Source: a virus
Taxonomy: Duplodnaviria > Heunggongvirae > Uroviricota > Caudoviricetes
IMG/VR virus record: IMGVR_UViG_2563366922_000008
Span: 1 to 37,816 of that record
Length of the DNA: 37,816 bases
Direction: 5' to 3' (one strand)
In this document: in pieces, positions 22,593 through 33,644 of the stretch
Layout: the number at the start of each line of letters is the position of its first letter
How positions within the stretch are numbered: position 1 is the stretch's first letter
The notes under the pieces: generated by a model
The model's database searches: none
What the model was told of the DNA's origin: nothing
The model's input: only the letters and a program-made list of their open reading frames with translations
Program-made: the position numbers and the translations under genes

Positions 22593-22879
22593 GACTTAAT
22601 CTTCCCCTCCTTCAGCAGTATCGCCTGCGTCCTGATCACGCCTTCGAGGTGGTAAAGTCTGGCGTCTTTGTTGTCGAGGTTATGGGTGCGTCGGTCGATT
22701 TCATCGTGACACGCGCTACAAGCCCATGCACCGATCAGGTCGTCAGGCTTCATTCCCGTTCCGCAAATTCCAGCCATCCGGTAATGTGCCAGAACTGTAG
22801 TTTCAGGGTTGCCATTGCATACGCCGTAAATACGTACCTGGCATTCTCTGCCGCGTGCTTCTTTGCGTAGGTTAGCCAT
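22589..22879 (-). CDS. ybcO: YbcO-like (DUF1364) putative nuclease
   Basis: 96-aa ORF MANLRKEARGRECQVRIYGVCNGNPETTVLAHYRMAGICGTGMKPDDLIGAWACSACHDEIDRRTH resembles E. coli DLP12 YbcO as recalled. Confidence 0.7.
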   Translation of the reverse strand: MANLRKEARGRECQVRIYGVCNGNPETTVLAHYRMAGICGTGMKPDDLIGAWACSACHDEIDRRTHNLDNKDARLYHLEGVIRTQAILLKEGKIKS

Positions 22880-23601
22880 TAAGCAGCCTCCCCTGTTACT
22901 TTCAGCATTCCGTTATCGAGCAGCTTTCTGGTCAGCCACTGTTGACCACGCCCGGTGATTTTTGTGGTGAACGATATCTGTATCCCGTGATTTGTGTTGA
23001 TCGCTGTTTCTTTCACTGTGAAATAGCCGCGATCCATATATTCCTGCATTGGCACATTGCGCCGGGAACCTGAAGCAATAAGGATTTTGTGATCGCGCAT
23101 CCACGCAAACAGTTTGTTTGGACCAATTCCAACAACCTTTGCAAAGTTTCCAATCAAAATTCCGCTGGCCTCGCCAACGCGATCGGCAAACTCAACTTTA
23201 GGTGCGGCAATTGCGAGCTGGTTTTCCAGTTGCATTTTCTTCTCAGCAAGATCAGCAGCAAGGCGCAACGCTTCCGGTAGCGTTTTGGGGATATTAACCG
23301 TAGTTTCTTCAAGCTCTCGCCAACGATCAACAAGACGAGCGGTGAATTCCGGCGACAACTGGGCTACAACGACAATACTGTCTCGCTTACCTTGTTCGCC
23401 CTCAAAAACGTAAGCCTCTACGCCACGAAGTAATCCTAAGTTATTGATTTTTTCGAAAACCACCATTGGGGGATTTCGGATCACACCTCGAGCCGCCAGT
23501 CGTTCAATAGATTGTTTCACCTTGTCATGACGACTTCCCACCAACTCAGCGATTTCAATGCTTGTCATTTTGATGGCGTTGCCATTTATTAACTCATTCA
23601 T
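22879..23601 (-). CDS. Phage antirepressor-like protein (Rha-like N-terminus plus KilA-C domain)
   Basis: 240-aa ORF; N-terminus MTSIEIAELVGSRHDKVKQSIERL (Rha/AntA-like), C-terminus ...NFAKVVGIGPNKLFAWMRDHKILI...YFTVKE...ISFTTKITGRGQQWLTRKL typical KilA-C. Confidence 0.75.
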   Translation of the reverse strand: MNELINGNAIKMTSIEIAELVGSRHDKVKQSIERLAARGVIRNPPMVVFEKINNLGLLRGVEAYVFEGEQGKRDSIVVVAQLSPEFTARLVDRWRELEETTVNIPKTLPEALRLAADLAEKKMQLENQLAIAAPKVEFADRVGEASGILIGNFAKVVGIGPNKLFAWMRDHKILIASGSRRNVPMQEYMDRGYFTVKETAINTNHGIQISFTTKITGRGQQWLTRKLLDNGMLKVTGEAA

Positions 23602-23770
23602 CGTCTTCTTCCTCGTACATTGAGCTATTCGGATCGCTCATCAGTTCTGCGCAGCAGTGCTCACACACATGAACTTCCAGCACATGCAGCTTCTGACCGC
23701 AGTTAGCGCACGTTAAAGCTCGCTCGACGCTTTCTTTCTGGTATTGAAGGGATTGGGATGGGCTAAGCAT
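23594..23770 (-). CDS. ninF: NinF-like protein (58 aa)
   Basis: Hand-translated: [58 protein letters not shown]; resembles lambda NinF; absent from ORF table (<60 aa); 3' end overlaps antirepressor start by 8 nt. Confidence 0.65.
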
Positions 23771-24110
23771 TATTGGCGTCCTGCATCAGGAGAAAGACAA
23801 TCATGGCGGCGCGGAGAGGTCTGGTATCAAATATTGGGCTTACGCCTTTTGCATCCACACACCATTCAGTTAACTGGTCTAAGATAGAAATCCTGTATTT
23901 CTCAATAATCGGCCATGAAGCGCTCGGATCATTGCAGTAGTCAGGCAAAGGGTTTAATGGCTCAAGACTTACATCGGCATTTCCGTAATACCATTTGTTG
24001 GTGTTATTCCCTGATGTTTCAGGCTTACATGCCCAAAGGCCTTTAAAAATTATGTCTCCTACCATTCGGTTAATTTCAAAATCACTTAACTGTGAATAAT
24101 CCATTGTCAT
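23763..24110 (-). CDS. Hypothetical nin-region protein (NinX-like by position)
   Basis: ATG at 24110 overlapping NinE stop (ATGA); [34 protein letters not shown]...; family uncertain. Confidence 0.5.
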
Positions 24111-24283
24111 TTCCTCGCACGATGTCTTAGCCACCGGATATCCCACAGGTGAGCCGTGTAGTTGAAGGTTTTTACGTCAGATTCTTTTGGGATTGGCTTG
24201 CGTTTATTTCTGGAGCGTTTCGTTGGAAGGTATTTGCAGTTTTCACAGATTATGTCGGTGATACTTCGTCGCTGTCGTCTCAT
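24107..24283 (-). CDS. ninE: NinE-like protein
   Basis: ATG at 24283 overlapping NinB stop; [58 protein letters not shown] resembles lambda NinE (or NinD) as recalled. Confidence 0.65.
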
Positions 24284-24690
24284 TCGTACCTCCTGTCGGT
24301 AAATCTGACACCCTGACCAATAGCCCAAGCTGTTGTGTACTCGATAAGACTTGCCATACGCTTCACACTCATCTGCGCGCTGCTTTCGCGAATGTTGACG
24401 TATTCGCCTTCAAGCCCAGGCAAAACATCAGCTTCCTGTTTTGTTGCCACTGCATGACCGCTGATCAACAAAACCTTCCATTGTTCCGGTTTTAACCATT
24501 TTCCGCACCATTGAACCTGACGTGCGATATCCGCCAGCATCGCGTGAAATTTTGCGTTCTGGTCAAGGTTGCGCTTGTAGTCAGTAATGCGGATGGTGAC
24601 TGGCTTGTCTTTATCGAGTGGTGTTGCGAGGATGGCATTTATTGCAGCTTGCTGTTGTTGCTTAGTTCGGAGGAAGATTGTTTGCTTCAC
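24280..24690 (-). CDS. ninB: NinB (Orf-family recombination mediator)
   Basis: 136-aa [24 protein letters not shown]...[32 protein letters not shown] resembles lambda NinB; apparent GTG start with AAGGAG 7 nt upstream. Confidence 0.8.
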
Positions 24691-24701
24691 TGAATACTCC
24701 T

Positions 24702-24887
24702 TTATTTTTTATGCCTGTAACCCCATTCTTCCAGCAACCTTGCGGCGTACCACCCAAGAAACAAAGGAAAGAACATTACAATGAGATATTCCCCGCCACG
24801 GTCAATGTTCGAAATTGACCAGATTACGATGTAACCAGTGCAGGACAGGAATATTACAAACCCCAAAAAGCTACTTCGTCGACTCAT
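24702..24887 (-). CDS. Small membrane protein (61 aa, two predicted TM helices)
   Basis: ATG at 24887 with AAGGAG 5 nt upstream; MSRRSSFLGFVIFLSCTGYIVIWSISNIDRGGEYLIVMFFPLFLGWYAARLLEEWGYRHKK. Confidence 0.45.
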   Translation of the reverse strand: MSRRSSFLGFVIFLSCTGYIVIWSISNIDRGGEYLIVMFFPLFLGWYAARLLEEWGYRHKK

Positions 24888-24889
24888 GC

Positions 24890-25204
24890 TCACTCCTTCA
24901 CTTTTATTCCAGCGGCGCGGATGTTTTCCTCATAAGCATCCATTGCATCACCGAAGCCATTGGAATAATCAACAGTAAACCCTTTGGCTAATGCTTCTCT
25001 GCTGTCGATAAACTTTGGCGCGATTATTTCAATAGCTGCTCGCGATGCCTGCCATAAAGCCCACCACTCATTTAAGGAGTGACGAATATCCATGCTTGAA
25101 AATGCAAAGTACCTATCACCATTTCGTGCCTCGGTTATCATCTCGAATGGTAATCTCAATTTTTTGGCAACGTATTCCTCAAACTGCTTTCTTGATTCGT
25201 CCAT
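24890..25204 (-). CDS. Hypothetical 104-aa nin-region protein
   Basis: ORF MDESRKQFEEYVAKKLRLPFEMITEARNGDRYFAFSSMDIRHSLNEWWALWQASRAAIEII...; ATG start. Confidence 0.5.
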   Translation of the reverse strand: MDESRKQFEEYVAKKLRLPFEMITEARNGDRYFAFSSMDIRHSLNEWWALWQASRAAIEIIAPKFIDSREALAKGFTVDYSNGFGDAMDAYEENIRAAGIKVKE

Positions 25205-25221
25205 CGATACTTACCCTCAAT

Positions 25222-25428
25222 TCAACTAACAAAACGCCACGCCATTTTTGCTACGACAACAGGCATAACACCGATAATCACCCAGACAAATGCAGCGCCA
25301 AACAACGTATACCATGGGTCTTTACCGTCATTCACAAGACGAATGTAGCTATGCAGAACAATAAAAAACGTCAGAAGAATCCATCCAACGCCAACGCATT
25401 TGAATGCGACGAGCATAAACTCAGCCAC
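25222..25428 (-). CDS. Small membrane protein (68 aa, two predicted TM helices)
   Basis: ORF (GTG start, GGAG upstream) MAEFMLVAFKCVGVGWILLTFFIVLHSYIRLVNDGKDPWYTLFGAAFVWVIIGVMPVVVAKMAWRFVS. Confidence 0.45.
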   Translation of the reverse strand: MAEFMLVAFKCVGVGWILLTFFIVLHSYIRLVNDGKDPWYTLFGAAFVWVIIGVMPVVVAKMAWRFVS

Positions 25429-28288: not shown

Positions 28289-29641
<1,353 letters not shown>

Positions 29642-29691
29642 TCCCCACCTCAATCTCAGTAACCCAAAAACAAACTATTTTCCGTTTAAAA

Positions 29692-29759
29692 ACAATGGAG
29701 TTTGTTTTTTGCACCTCCATTTACAATATTTCTTGTTTACAACATACAATCTTTCTTGT
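29692..29759. promoter_or_regulatory. Left operator OL (three 434-type sites) with PL
   Basis: ACAATGGAGTTTGT (29692-29705), ACAATATTTCTTGT (29723-29736), ACAATCTTTCTTGT (29746-29759) upstream of nutL and N. Confidence 0.8.
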
Positions 29760-29804
29760 AATTTTAAGCCATCAGCAGGACGCACTGACCACCATTGAAG
29801 GTGA

Positions 29805-29835
29805 CGCTCTTAAAAATTAAGCCCTGAAGAAGGGC
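29805..29835 (+). promoter_or_regulatory. nutL (boxA CGCTCTTAA, boxB GCCCTGAAGAAGGGC)
   Basis: gaCGCTCTTAAaaattaaGCCCTGAAGAAGGGCag in the N leader. Confidence 0.8.
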
Positions 29836-30033
29836 AGCATTCAAAGCAGAAGGCTTTGGGATTGGATGAATGAGCAGGCTGATGCTCGACCAATGTATAA
29901 ACAGCGCTCATGGCAAGCAGTAACCAATCTGCGCCTCAAGACAGCGTCACTGGTAGTGCGGGCGCTCTAACCAGTAAGCCGGGGTTCAGCGCCGGCCATC
30001 CAATCACCAAAGCTAACTGACAGGAGAATCCAG

Positions 30034-30360
30034 ATGGATGCACAAACACGCCGCCGCGAACGTCGCGCAGAGAAACAGGCTCAATGGAAAGCAGCAAATC
30101 CCCTGTTGGTTGGGGTAAGCGCAAAACCAGTTAACCGCCCTATTCTCTCGCTGAATCGCAAACCGAAATCACGAGTAGAAAGCGCACTGAATCCGATAGA
30201 CCTTACGGTGCTGGCTGAATACCACGAACAGATTGAAAGCAACCTGCAGCGTATTGAGCGCAAGAATCAGCGCACATGGTACAGCAAGCCACGCAGTGAA
30301 ATGGGTGTGACTTGTGTTGGTCGCCAGAAAATGAAATTAGGCAGCAAACCACTTATTTGA
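30034..30360 (+). CDS. N: Antitermination protein N (lambda-type)
   Basis: 108-aa ORF MDAQTRRRERRAEKQAQWKAANPLLVGVSAKPVNRPILSLNRKPKSRVESALNPIDLTVLAEYHEQIESNLQRIERKNQRTWYSKP... with Arg-rich N-terminus; AGGAG RBS. Confidence 0.9.
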   Translation: MDAQTRRRERRAEKQAQWKAANPLLVGVSAKPVNRPILSLNRKPKSRVESALNPIDLTVLAEYHEQIESNLQRIERKNQRTWYSKPRSEMGVTCVGRQKMKLGSKPLI

Positions 30361-30368
30361 GGTGAGAT

Positions 30369-30455
30369 ATGGAAGAAGATTTTGAAGAGTTCGAAGAGCA
30401 TCCGCAGGATGTGATGGAACAATACCAGGACTATCCGTATGACTACGACTATTGA
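30369..30455 (+). CDS. Possible acidic microprotein (28 aa)
   Basis: ATG 8 nt after N stop, GAGGTGAG upstream; MEEDFEEFEEHPQDVMEQYQDYPYDYDY; overlaps ral start by 17 nt; coding status uncertain. Confidence 0.25.
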   Translation: MEEDFEEFEEHPQDVMEQYQDYPYDYDY

Positions 30456-30639
30456 TAAGAATCAATGGTGTGGACAATTCAAGCGATGCAATGGATGCAA
30501 GCTGCAATCGGAATGCATGGTTAAGCCTGAAGAAATGTTTCCTGTAATGGAAGATGGGAAATATGTCGATAAATGGGCAATACGAACGACGGCAATGATT
30601 GCCAGAGAAATTGGTAAACAGAACAACAAGGCTGCCTAA
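30439..30639 (+). CDS. ral: Restriction alleviation protein Ral
   Basis: 66-aa ORF MTTTIDKNQWCGQFKRCNGCKLQSECMVKPEEMFPVMEDGKYVDKWAIRTTAMIAREIGKQNNKAA matches lambda Ral as recalled. Confidence 0.8.
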   Translation: MTTTIDKNQWCGQFKRCNGCKLQSECMVKPEEMFPVMEDGKYVDKWAIRTTAMIAREIGKQNNKAA

Positions 30640-30679
30640 TGGTGGCCTTTATTTTTGGTATAAACAATATGGGGTAAAA

Positions 30680-31006
30680 ATGAAAGTTTTAATGGTTTAT
30701 GAAAATGTTCCAGAGTCGACTGAAATCTATATTTTTGATGCCAATGAAGATGAAGTTAACGATTTGAAATTGTCTCACGGCAATTACACAAATGCTAATT
30801 GTGATGAAAGTATCGAAAAAGCACTATCACGTGTTCTTGTCAGAATTAGTGATCCAGAACATTGTGATGATGATTGGCTTTCTTATTGTGGAGCGGTAAA
30901 AACTGATGCAGGAAAATGGAGTAAAAGTAAAGTTGATAACTCAACTCCAATCATTATGAAAGATAGCGATATTGAAATGGTAATAATAACCGGAATGATT
31001 ATGTAG
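30680..31006 (+). CDS. Hypothetical acidic Cys-containing protein (108 aa), AT-rich gene in the sieB slot
   Basis: ATG at 30680 with GGGG upstream; MKVLMVYENVPESTEIYIFDANEDEVNDLKLSHGNYTNANCDESIEKALSRVLVRISDPEHCDDDWLSYCGAVKTD...; G+C visibly lower than flanking genes. Confidence 0.55.
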   Translation: MKVLMVYENVPESTEIYIFDANEDEVNDLKLSHGNYTNANCDESIEKALSRVLVRISDPEHCDDDWLSYCGAVKTDAGKWSKSKVDNSTPIIMKDSDIEMVIITGMIM

Positions 31007-31022
31007 GCTGCGAATAAGCACT

Positions 31023-31050
31023 GTGTATTCATTCCAACGAGTGAATACAC
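31023..31050. repeat. Perfect 9-bp inverted repeat GTGTATTCA-N10-TGAATACAC
   Basis: Seen directly in the intergenic region after the AT-rich gene; could be an RNA hairpin or a dimeric protein binding site. Confidence 0.5.
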
Positions 31051-31112
31051 GGAGCAATGTCGCTCGTAACTAAACAGGAGCCGACTTGTTCTGATTATTG
31101 GAAATCTTCTTT

Positions 31113-31139
31113 GCCCTCCAGTGTGAGGGCATTTTTTTG
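31113..31139 (+). terminator. Rho-independent terminator (gccctc-cagtgtg-agggc + T7)
   Basis: GC-rich stem followed by attttttt on the plus strand, before the next RBS. Confidence 0.6.
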
Positions 31140-31150
31140 ACGGAGGAAAT

Positions 31151-31462
31151 ATGAAATTACGTGTCTGGCATATCCCGCAAGTACCTATGAAGCCGTTCAT
31201 TGTAGAAGTGGCAAGTGTTGAAGAGGGTGTTCGCCTGATGGACGCACTGGCTGATTATGACGCCTTTCAGTATGACAACAACATCAAGCCTGATTACTGC
31301 AATGCTAACGGCCTTGAGATGTGGGATGAGAGCCTTACCGATGAAGATTTATCAGAGATGGAGCTTACGGATCGCTGGGTAGATTGGTACAGCGAATGCC
31401 AATGTTACGACGACCCACGTAAATATATCGAAAGCCTGAAAGAAGAAACCTCAGCATCCTGA
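31151..31462 (+). CDS. Hypothetical highly acidic protein (103 aa)
   Basis: GGAGG RBS; MKLRVWHIPQVPMKPFIVEVASVEEGVRLMDALADYDAFQYDNNIKPDYCNANGLEMWDESLTDEDLSEMELTDRWVDWYSECQCYDDPRKYIESLKEETSAS; many D/E, few K/R. Confidence 0.55.
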   Translation: MKLRVWHIPQVPMKPFIVEVASVEEGVRLMDALADYDAFQYDNNIKPDYCNANGLEMWDESLTDEDLSEMELTDRWVDWYSECQCYDDPRKYIESLKEETSAS

Positions 31463-31497
31463 GCGCGGATTTGACGCATACAAATTAAGGAGGATAT

Positions 31498-32466
31498 ATG
31501 AGTGAAGTAACAGATTTAGTTGTTATTGAAAAAGCAAATGCAATGACTGTATTTCAGTCTGCCGACCAGATTGAAGAAATCCTTCAAAAGGTTGAACGTG
31601 AAGTTATGTCCTTTGTGCCTGATATCACAACGGCAAAGGGCAGAAAGGAGATCGCTTCTCTGGCGTATAAAGTTGCGCAGACGAAAACATATCTCGATGG
31701 TCTTGGCAAAGACCTTGTTGCTGAACTGAAGGAAATTCCAAAGCTAATTGATGCCAACCGCAAGACAGTGCGCGATCGCCTTGATGAACTGAAAGCCAAG
31801 GCACGCCAGCCTCTTACTGATTATGAAGAGGAACAGGCGCGGATTAAAGCCGAAGAAGAAGCTAAGGCAGCAGCTGAAGCTCTCGCAAGGCAAATTGAGT
31901 CTGACCATGAAATAGCGATTTTGATGGATCGCGAATTTGACCGCCAAAGAGAAGAGGAAAGACTCAAAGCGGAGCAGGAAAAGCGAGAGCATGAAGAACG
32001 CTTAAAAAGAGAAGCTGAAGAGAAAGCCAGAGCAGAAGCCGAAGCAAAGGCAAAAGCCGAAATTGAAGCAGCAGCAAGACGAGAAGCAGAGGCTAAGGCC
32101 GCAGCGGAACGTGCAGAGCGTGAACGCATTGAAGCCGAGCAACGAGCACAGCGCGAAGCAAAAGAGGCAGCAGAACGAGCTGAAAGAGAAAAGCAGGCGG
32201 CAATTGAAGCAGAACGCCGAAAAGCACAGGAGGAGGCTGAACGAATCCGGCGCGAGGCTGAAGCAAAAGAGCAAGCCAGAATAGCAGAAGAAAAAAGAAT
32301 CAAGGACGAAGAAGAGCGTAGAGCAAAGGATAAAGCTCACCGGAAAGAAGTAAATAACAAAATACTTGCTGACCTTATCAAGGTTGGCGCATCAGAAGAT
32401 GTTGCTAAAAATATCATAATAGCCATCGCAAAAGGCGAAGTATTCGCAACAAAAATAACCTACTAA
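31498..32466 (+). CDS. Hypothetical protein with long E/K/R/A-rich helical (single-alpha-helix or coiled-coil-like) region
   Basis: 322-aa ORF, AAGGAGG RBS; globular N-terminus, then about 180 aa of AEEEAKAAAEALARQ...EERLKAEQEKREHEERLKREAEEKARAEAEAKAKAEIEAAARREAEAKAAAERAERERIEAEQRAQREAKEAAERAEREKQ... Confidence 0.65.
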   Translation: MSEVTDLVVIEKANAMTVFQSADQIEEILQKVEREVMSFVPDITTAKGRKEIASLAYKVAQTKTYLDGLGKDLVAELKEIPKLIDANRKTVRDRLDELKAKARQPLTDYEEEQARIKAEEEAKAAAEALARQIESDHEIAILMDREFDRQREEERLKAEQEKREHEERLKREAEEKARAEAEAKAKAEIEAAARREAEAKAAAERAERERIEAEQRAQREAKEAAERAEREKQAAIEAERRKAQEEAERIRREAEAKEQARIAEEKRIKDEEERRAKDKAHRKEVNNKILADLIKVGASEDVAKNIIIAIAKGEVFATKITY

Positions 32467-32490: not shown

Positions 32491-32637
32491 ATGATTTACG
32501 CAATCGCGGGAGGCGCTCGCATGGGTGCCTTCCAACTAAATGAATCTTTACTTGAACGAATCACCCGTAAATTACGTGACGGATGGAAACGCCTTATCGA
32601 CATACTTAATCAGCCAGGAGTCCCCAAAAATGGATAA
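32491..32637 (+). CDS. cIII: cIII (FtsH/HflB inhibitor, stabiliser of cII)
   Basis: Hand-translated 48 aa: MIYAIAGGARMGAFQLNESLLERITRKLRDGWKRLIDILNQPGVPKNG, matches lambda cIII core; AAGGA RBS; absent from ORF table (<60 aa). Confidence 0.8.
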   Translation: MIYAIAGGARMGAFQLNESLLERITRKLRDGWKRLIDILNQPGVPKNG

Positions 32638-32743
32638 AACACTTATGGCTATCCAGACTAAATTCACTATCGCCGCTTTTATTGGCGATGAAAAGATGTT
32701 TCGTGAGGCCGTCGAAGCCTACAGAAAATGGAGGTCAAAATGA
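32630..32743 (+). CDS. kil: Kil-like host-killing (cell division inhibitor) protein
   Basis: Hand-translated 37 aa: MDKTLMAIQTKFTIAAFIGDEKMFREAVEAYRKWRSK; resembles lambda Kil N-terminus as recalled; start overlaps cIII end. Confidence 0.55.
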   Translation: MDKTLMAIQTKFTIAAFIGDEKMFREAVEAYRKWRSK

Positions 32744-32936: not shown

Positions 32937-33644
32937 ATGGATTTGAACAAATTCGATGAGCCATTCAGCCCTGAAGATATCGAATGGCGAATACAGCAAA
33001 GCGGTAAAACACGCGATGGCAAGGTGTGGGCTATGGTGCTGGCTTATGTCACGAACCGGGCAATCATGAAACGCCTGGACGATGTTTGCGGCAAATCAGG
33101 ATGGCGCAATGAATACCGCGATATTCCCAACAACGGCGGAGTTGAATGCGGCATATCAATCAAGATTGATTCCGAATGGGTAACCAAATGGGATGCCGCT
33201 GAAAACACGCAGGTAGAAGCCGTCAAAGGTGGTCGTTCCGGTGCAATGAAGCGCGCTGCCGTTCAATGGGGAATCGGTCGGTATCTGTATAACCTTGAGG
33301 AAGGTTTCGCACAAACATCTCTCGATAAAAAGCAGGGGTGGCACAGGGCAAAACTGAAGGATGGAACAGGGTTTTACTGGCTCCCTCCAACGCTGCCCGG
33401 CTGGGCAATCCCAGCATCAGATAACAAACCATCACCAGAAAATACCAACCAGAAATCTCCATCGGTTGACTGCGAACAAATCCTGAAAGACTTCAGCGAT
33501 TATGCATCGAAAGAAACTGATAAGAAAAAACTCATCGAGCGTTATCAGCGTGACTGGCAATTAATGGCTGGCAATGAGGAGGCGCAGGCTAAATGCGTTC
33601 AGGTAATGAACATCAGAGTTAACGAACTAAAACAGGCGGCATAA
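32937..33644 (+). CDS. Single-strand annealing protein, Rad52/Sak-like
   Basis: 235-aa ORF; ...GKVWAMVLAYVTNRAIMKRLDDVCGKSGWRNEY...GGRSGAMKRAAVQWGIGRYLYNLEEGF typical of Rad52-family phage SSAPs; sits with SSB in the recombination module. Confidence 0.7.
   Translation: MDLNKFDEPFSPEDIEWRIQQSGKTRDGKVWAMVLAYVTNRAIMKRLDDVCGKSGWRNEYRDIPNNGGVECGISIKIDSEWVTKWDAAENTQVEAVKGGRSGAMKRAAVQWGIGRYLYNLEEGFAQTSLDKKQGWHRAKLKDGTGFYWLPPTLPGWAIPASDNKPSPENTNQKSPSVDCEQILKDFSDYASKETDKKKLIERYQRDWQLMAGNEEAQAKCVQVMNIRVNELKQAA

Follow-up and report, generated by a model that had tools for sequence, protein, structure and literature searches.

In papers citing Semerjian et al. (1989), gp17 of Salmonella phage P22 is described as required against exclusion by the Fels-2 prophage, and PMC9409062 assigns the same anti-exclusion role to gp17 and describes the gene as a hallmark of Kuttervirus. 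Three papers describe the function, each citing older work, so that the phenotype rests on secondary citations. PMC4837284 is at odds with PMC6486243 and PMC9409062 as to whether Fels-1 or Fels-2 is the excluder that P22 gp17 counters. The gene 17 family (PF17420) has also been annotated in H-19B, ST64T, ST104, phage L, and Stx phages. The databases name every annotated homologue, as well as the Pfam and PHROG families, "superinfection exclusion protein". This label is regarded here as a misnomer, because the literature describes gp17 as countering exclusion. The value of the present analysis is mainly corrective, in that thousands of records carry the exclusion label and the literature describes an anti-exclusion factor.

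The DNA analyzed here (the window; all 37,816 nt of IMG/VR record IMGVR_UViG_2563366922_000008) is a lambdoid mosaic of the P22/Sf6/HK type with its pL operon on the + strand. An ORF on that strand, with ATG at 31151 and a TGA ending at 31462, encodes an acidic, cytoplasmic protein of 103 aa. This protein matches Pfam PF17420 (GP17) with an E value of 2.3e-55 and 185.2 bits against a cut-off of 25, in an end-to-end alignment (residues 1–98 on positions 1–98 of the 98-position profile), and matches PHROG 1510 with an E value of 7.5e-58. Comparison by tblastn gives 87.4% amino-acid identity to P22 gene 17, the product of which is likewise 103 aa long, 93–94% identity to the ST104, ST160, and phage L genes, and 97% identity to a Stx1a phage gene. 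The window protein retains all 16 family-invariant residues (Trp6, Pro9, Gln10, Phe16, Leu33, Tyr36, Asp37, Phe39, Gln40, Lys46, Asp48, Tyr49, Asn51, Gly54, Trp76, and Trp79), which show no variation among 58 homologues and a conservation of at least 91% among 265 sequences. Judged by its sequence, the window gene is orthologous to gene 17 of Salmonella phage P22, and its family is one already known.

The gene is under purifying selection, with dS of 0.63, dN of 0.073, and dN/dS of 0.115 relative to P22 gene 17 and dN/dS of 0.225 relative to phage PA28. A GGAGG Shine-Dalgarno sequence (31142..31146, + strand), read directly from the DNA and conserved in P22, PA28, and IMG/VR loci, lies 4 nt 5′ of the ATG. 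Together with the low dN/dS and hundreds of homologues, this Shine-Dalgarno sequence indicates that gene 17 is a real gene. The best explanation overall, to which a probability of about 0.55 is given, is that this orthologue of P22 gene 17 encodes an N-dependent early counter-defence protein that neutralizes an Abi effector of a prophage.

The first feature of the protein to attract attention was its charge. An earlier note, made by a model from the DNA letters, had counted by hand roughly 24 Asp and Glu residues against about 9 Lys and Arg residues, and the count is exact (Asp 12 and Glu 12; Lys 5 and Arg 4), acidic residues making up 23% of the protein. The acidic clusters that it had described are likewise present: within WDESLTDEDLSEMELTD, residues 58–74, the charge summed over 15 residues reaches its minimum (−7). 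The calculation of pI and charge distribution that it had suggested gives a pI of 4.11, a net charge of −15, and a mass of 12.2 kDa. With −0.146 charge per residue, the protein is the most acidic product of the 71 ATG-initiated ORFs that reach 80 aa or more in the window, both strands included; the upstream neighbor of gene 17 comes second (−0.10 charge per residue).

This acidity is a property of the family. Net charge ranges from −8 to −19 and pI from 4.05 to 4.40 in 58 homologues, and the median pI of 149 representatives of 50%-identity clusters is 4.37, only nine of these, including fusions and aberrant or truncated sequences, having a pI above 5. In the 265-sequence profile alignment, at least 70% of sequences have an acidic residue at each of positions 25, 37, 42, 48, 59, 69, 71, 78, 82, 83, 87, and 88. 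Glu24, Asp31, Asp35, and Asp42 lie along one face of helix 1. The acidic cluster at residues 61–73 is an indel region, present in only about 75–185 of the 265 sequences, and is the least conserved part of the family. On sequence and secondary structure alone, the protein has an acidic stripe on helix 1 and conserved acidic positions at 59–88, and its densest cluster (61–73) is indel-prone.

These features bear on the proposal of the earlier note that the protein is a DNA mimic of the Ocr/ArdA type, with an acidic surface that would imitate B-form DNA and titrate type I or other restriction-modification enzymes or BREX enzymes. Ocr (T7 gp0.3) and ArdA resemble gp17 in being small, expressed early, and encoded among counter-defence genes, and the "pI ~4" quoted for both is comparable to the pI and Asp+Glu content of the window protein. 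The family-wide acidity at about a dozen positions, the acidic face of helix 1, and the presence of ral in the same operon also speak for mimicry. Against it, the named family PF17420 has a different reported phenotype, the acidic cluster that had been quoted is the least conserved, indel-prone segment of the family, comparison of the predicted fold with Ocr and ArdA revealed no related fold, and a 92%-identical orthologue is missing from the hits of a published restriction screen. A mimic of this kind is therefore quite improbable. The conserved acidity is compatible with mimicry and is not specific to it, and because strong negative charge is conserved throughout the family, electrostatic nucleic-acid mimicry toward some other target is possible.

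The screen is that of Silas et al. (bioRxiv 10.1101/2023.04.06.535777), in which 200 phage accessory genes were synthesized, including ST64T gene 17 (AAL15493.1; UDP0144, annotated "17?"; orf144), whose product is 92% identical to the window protein. In the arm combining MG1655 and lambda, which reads out EcoKI restriction, the notes of all three replicates state that "ardA, ral, ocr are hits" (bioRxiv 10.1101/2023.04.06.535777). ST64T gene 17 is not among the hits, which, for a pooled screen, is weak evidence against relief of restriction, although relief of restriction on expression is exactly what the earlier note had proposed to test. The name orf144 is absent from the text and from the list of "all AGs that produced phenotypes", and no counter-defence phenotype is reported for ST64T gp17 in any ECOR host–phage combination tested (bioRxiv 10.1101/2023.04.06.535777). 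Two further genes of that study are distinct from gene 17: orf184, the trigger of gop-beta-cII, encodes a different acidic protein, and orf24 shares an accessory region with ocr rather than with ral.

The predicted model of the protein is a compact alpha+beta structure (pLDDT 92.4, pTM 0.80). Neither the single protein nor the family profile found more than chance matches (E of at least 0.1) among PDB-chain sequences, leaving the fold without a solved relative in those searches. Its nearest fold match is ERH (enhancer of rudimentary homologue), at a weak level below significance and with 5–9% sequence identity. ERH is a eukaryotic nuclear protein that acts as a small dimeric adaptor binding partner peptides, and its resemblance to gp17 is one of shape only and is not evidence of homology. 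The invariant core of the family is mostly aromatic or hydrophobic (Trp6, Pro9, Gln10, Phe16, Leu33, Tyr36, Phe39, Gln40, Tyr49, Trp76, and Trp79) and is joined by an IKPDYxNxxG loop (KPDYxNxxG, Lys46–Gly54). The protein contains no transmembrane segment (highest Kyte-Doolittle value of a 19-residue window, 1.02; GRAVY −0.64) and matches no catalytic family in Pfam, NCBIfam, or PADLOC. Because of its length of 103 aa, the lack of a transmembrane segment, the compact model, and the lack of a catalytic-family match, gp17 is read as a cytoplasmic binder rather than as an enzyme or a membrane protein.

The region upstream of gene 17 suggests when the protein is made. Nucleotide matches to Stx phages and PA28 begin at about 31011, which delimits a conserved leader (31011..31111, + strand) that travels with gene 17. 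The leader contains a 9-bp hairpin (31023–31031 paired with 31042–31050) followed by the invariant GAGCAATRTCGCTCGTAAC (31052–31070); in an alignment assessed by eye, the stem is swapped for other complementary sequences in P22 and in locus L064. Within GAGCAATRTCGCTCGTAAC, a boxA-like CGCTCGTAAC can be recognized. A search of Rfam found nothing significant in positions 29600–32000 of the window, leader included.

Directly 5′ of gene 17, a terminator scan detected an intrinsic-terminator-like hairpin with a T run (31112..31138, + strand), which sits 11 nt upstream of the Shine-Dalgarno sequence. The hairpin (31112–31131) comprises GCCCTC-CAGTGT-GAGGGC inside a 7-pair stem, five pairs of which are G-C, and is followed by TTTTTTT. 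The minimum free energy of the 56 nt around it is −14.9 kcal/mol, an unremarkable energy with a z score of only −1.1. At the equivalent position in P22 and in loci L079, L082, and L087, hairpins with different compensated stems are found, each with a T run, and at least five compensated versions of the stem can be distinguished (both by eye). A consensus scan found no sigma-70-like promoter between the terminator hairpin and the ATG, and the sole promoter-like site that it found on the + strand (30972–30999; 9 of 12 matches) lies upstream of the terminator. As gene 17 lies behind a terminator and lacks a promoter of its own in that scan, it is predicted to be read only by N-modified polymerase from pL, and therefore to be expressed early in infection or induction and not in the lysogen. 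Such early timing is in keeping with a counter-defence protein and speaks against an exclusion protein expressed by the prophage.

Taken literally, the label would mean that gp17 is made by a prophage in order to block incoming phages, a reading whose support is that all annotated homologues and the Pfam and PHROG families bear the name. A promoterless gene behind a terminator in an N-dependent pL operon should not be expressed by a repressed prophage, and the Sie, Imm, Cor, and Ltp superinfection exclusion proteins are membrane or envelope proteins, in contrast to gp17, which has neither a membrane segment nor a lipobox. Moreover, the gene is a hallmark of strictly virulent phages (e.g., Kuttervirus and N4-like phages), and the three papers on function state the opposite, namely that gp17 counteracts or releases exclusion. 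The literal meaning of the label is therefore extremely improbable, and a factor acting against exclusion is the preferred reading of the gene.

The operon surrounding gene 17 consists, on the + strand, of N (30034–30360), ral (30439–30639; 512 nt upstream of gene 17), orf109, encoding a protein of 109 aa between ral and gene 17 (30677–31006), the terminator, gene 17, orf322, encoding a highly charged protein of 322 aa (31498–32466), cIII (32491–32637), kil (about 32630–32743), and an erf-like gene for a Rad52/Erf-type annealing protein (32937–33644). In P22 the order is 24, sieB, ral, orf78, orf67, 17, cIII, kil, arf, and erf. The position of gene 17 in the operon therefore matches that in P22, with ral-side accessory genes on one flank and cIII and kil on the other. 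The earlier note had placed the gene in the early-left operon next to ral. The lambdoid pL operon is confirmed, but the adjacency is not, as orf109 and the terminator-like hairpin intervene. Its description of the region as a counter-defence context agrees with the literature, in which the P22 orthologue is described as a counter-exclusion factor.

The two sides of gene 17 were compared among lambdoid prophage loci of IMG/VR. The downstream neighbor is of the cIII type in about 65 of 80 loci; in eight of the 80 it is the 322-aa protein. The upstream neighbor falls into 26 unrelated clusters in 79 loci, and the gap between it and gene 17 is nearly constant at 145–175 nt. Because the upstream neighbors vary at a constant gap, gene 17 and its leader appear to form a stable unit that borders a hypervariable accessory slot. 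This slot looks like a hotspot of accessory or counter-defence genes. Its occupants (window 30640–31150; loci L008–L087) include ral and several small acidic proteins, and the sequence of one looks like a pentapeptide repeat, a fold for which DNA mimicry is known in Qnr and MfpA. In the window, the slot holds orf109, the product of which ranks second in acidity in the window (pI 4.45; net charge −10), belongs to PHROG 4658 (unknown function), and has no match in Pfam or PADLOC; it is as good a candidate for an acidic inhibitor as gene 17, and there are no reports on it. The 322-aa protein on the other side has 79 acidic and 70 basic residues, with Glu, Lys, Arg, and Ala strongly represented, and matches only PHROGs of unknown function. 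It is distinct from Gp33, the Old trigger of HK446, since HK446_033 is a protein of 56 aa. Neither gp17 nor these two neighbors match any PADLOC or NCBIfam model.

The family extends far beyond the lambdoid phages. Among 1.84 billion cluster representatives, a profile search recovered 1,195 members at E values of at most 0.001 and 773 at E values of at most 1e-10, mostly single-domain proteins of 90–130 aa, and strong acidity is a conserved feature of at least 1,195 clusters of the family. Phages in GenBank that carry the family include P22-like and Stx phages, Ackermannviridae (Vi01 and its relatives on Salmonella, E. coli, Klebsiella, Serratia, and Erwinia), N4-like phages, and the Bacillus phages SP-10 and PJN02; a Mycobacterium phage has a weak match. 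Among longer members, occasional fusions join the family only to other small phage domains (Phage_gp49_66, DUF6166, and a sub-threshold match to RNA polymerase alpha CTD). Two metagenomic homologues (P0050 and P0062) have related N-terminal extensions of about 55 aa with a Walker-A-like GxxxxGK[ST] motif, which are too short for a full NTPase.

This breadth, including virulent Ackermannviridae, N4-like phages, and SP-10, is compatible with a widely distributed target, for example the AIPR family. That virulent phages infecting distant hosts also carry the family could equally point to a conserved host target instead of an Abi protein of a prophage. In that case, gp17 would be a host-takeover factor that binds a conserved nucleic-acid-binding host protein (nucleoid, RNA-polymerase-associated, or repair), and escape from Fels-2 would be indirect, for example through removal of a signal sensed by the Abi system. 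The 1,195 clusters, with virulent phages among them, are hard to square with a single prophage-specific target, the acidity is conserved, and the nearest, weak, fold match is an adaptor that binds partner peptides, all of which favor such a role. Conversely, the gene is described as required against a prophage exclusion system, no host partner is known, and no toxicity or fitness phenotype was reported for ST64T gp17 in ECOR strains. A host-takeover factor is accordingly judged unlikely.

Fels-2 (NC_010463) is a prophage of the P2/186 type in which STM2723.1 (565 aa) and STM2726 (243 aa) lie at 22639–25335, flanked by the replication gene A region on one side and by the portal gene Q on the other. 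On the map of P2, the accessory genes tin and old lie between the same two genes. STM2723.1 matches AbiU in PADLOC with an E value of 2.7e-112 and AIPR (abortive infection phage resistance) in Pfam with an E value of 8.8e-43, and Fels-2 has been described as carrying abiU "of unknown function" (PMC3853940). On the simplest reading, AbiU constitutes the "exclusion system" of Fels-2 and is inhibited by gp17. Other accessory genes of Fels-2 could be the excluder, e.g., STM2726, which matches nothing, or STM2733.1, which has no PADLOC hit. None of the seven candidate accessory genes of Fels-1 has a PADLOC hit. Among the matches listed in a full-text literature search, no phage paper contained both AbiU and P22.

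The distribution of the two genes in E. coli differs. The abiU allele of Fels-2 is present in seven of 5,426 complete E. coli genomes (six at 97% nucleotide identity and one at 84%), versus 135 of the 5,426 for gene 17, always at 95% nucleotide identity or more. Since the abiU allele is this rare relative to gene 17, the target in E. coli phages may differ.

In the mechanism proposed, gp17, a small and soluble protein of strong acidity, would be produced at an early stage of lytic growth, its mRNA being the N-antiterminated transcript from pL, and would enable the infecting phage to grow despite a resident P2-like prophage (Fels-2 in Salmonella LT2). It would act stoichiometrically, binding and neutralizing the abortive-infection effector of the prophage, probably the AbiU/AIPR-family protein that Fels-2 carries beside its portal gene. 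Binding may occur through the invariant aromatic/IKPDYxNxxG face of gp17, and its conserved acidic surface may dock on a target surface that is basic and probably binds nucleic acid. That AbiU is the target, and that binding is direct, is what we infer. The more specific proposal, that gp17-family proteins are the first known inhibitors of AIPR/AbiU, that the Fels-2 exclusion system of the 1980s is STM2723.1, and that gp17 binds it directly, possibly as an acidic nucleic-acid decoy, is speculative and, although possible, rather doubtful. Were it correct, the link to AbiU could give a 35-year-old phenotype its target and the AbiU family an inhibitor, none having been found, and AbiU inhibition would account for the spread of the family to virulent Ackermannviridae, N4-like phages, and Bacillus phages. 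The role of gp17 might also explain why the gene occurs in many virulent phages that are therapeutic candidates, e.g., Kuttervirus.

Among known systems, the P22 gene 17 product is the closest to the window protein, which resembles it in length, in operon position upstream of cIII and kil, in a terminator-bearing leader, and in the full-length HMM match. The window differs from P22 in that the 322-aa charged protein (31498–32466) is encoded between gene 17 and cIII, and in its host background, which is of the E. coli/Shigella type (a mosaic similar to Sf6 and HK phages) rather than Salmonella; the natural opponent of the window protein may therefore not be Fels-2 itself. Ral of lambda shares with gp17 the operon and the purpose of aiding the phage against host or prophage barriers. 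Unlike gp17, it is a basic protein (pI 8.8) of an unrelated family, PF11058, and type I methyltransferase activity is the object of its action. Among inhibitors of prophage-encoded Abi proteins, gp17 corresponds to neither of the reported anti-Old proteins, Oad1 being a vibriophage protein and Oad2 the EaE-like gp27 of HK446. Oad2 is unrelated to gp17 in sequence and its target is the ATPase-TOPRIM protein Old, whereas an AIPR protein is the candidate for gp17. Like gp17, Oad2 is a small protein of the early-left region of a lambdoid phage, and it binds and inhibits Old of prophage P2 (bioRxiv 10.64898/2026.07.10.737580). It thereby provides the precedent for the proposal made here for gp17, in which the Abi protein of a P2-type prophage would be neutralized by direct binding.
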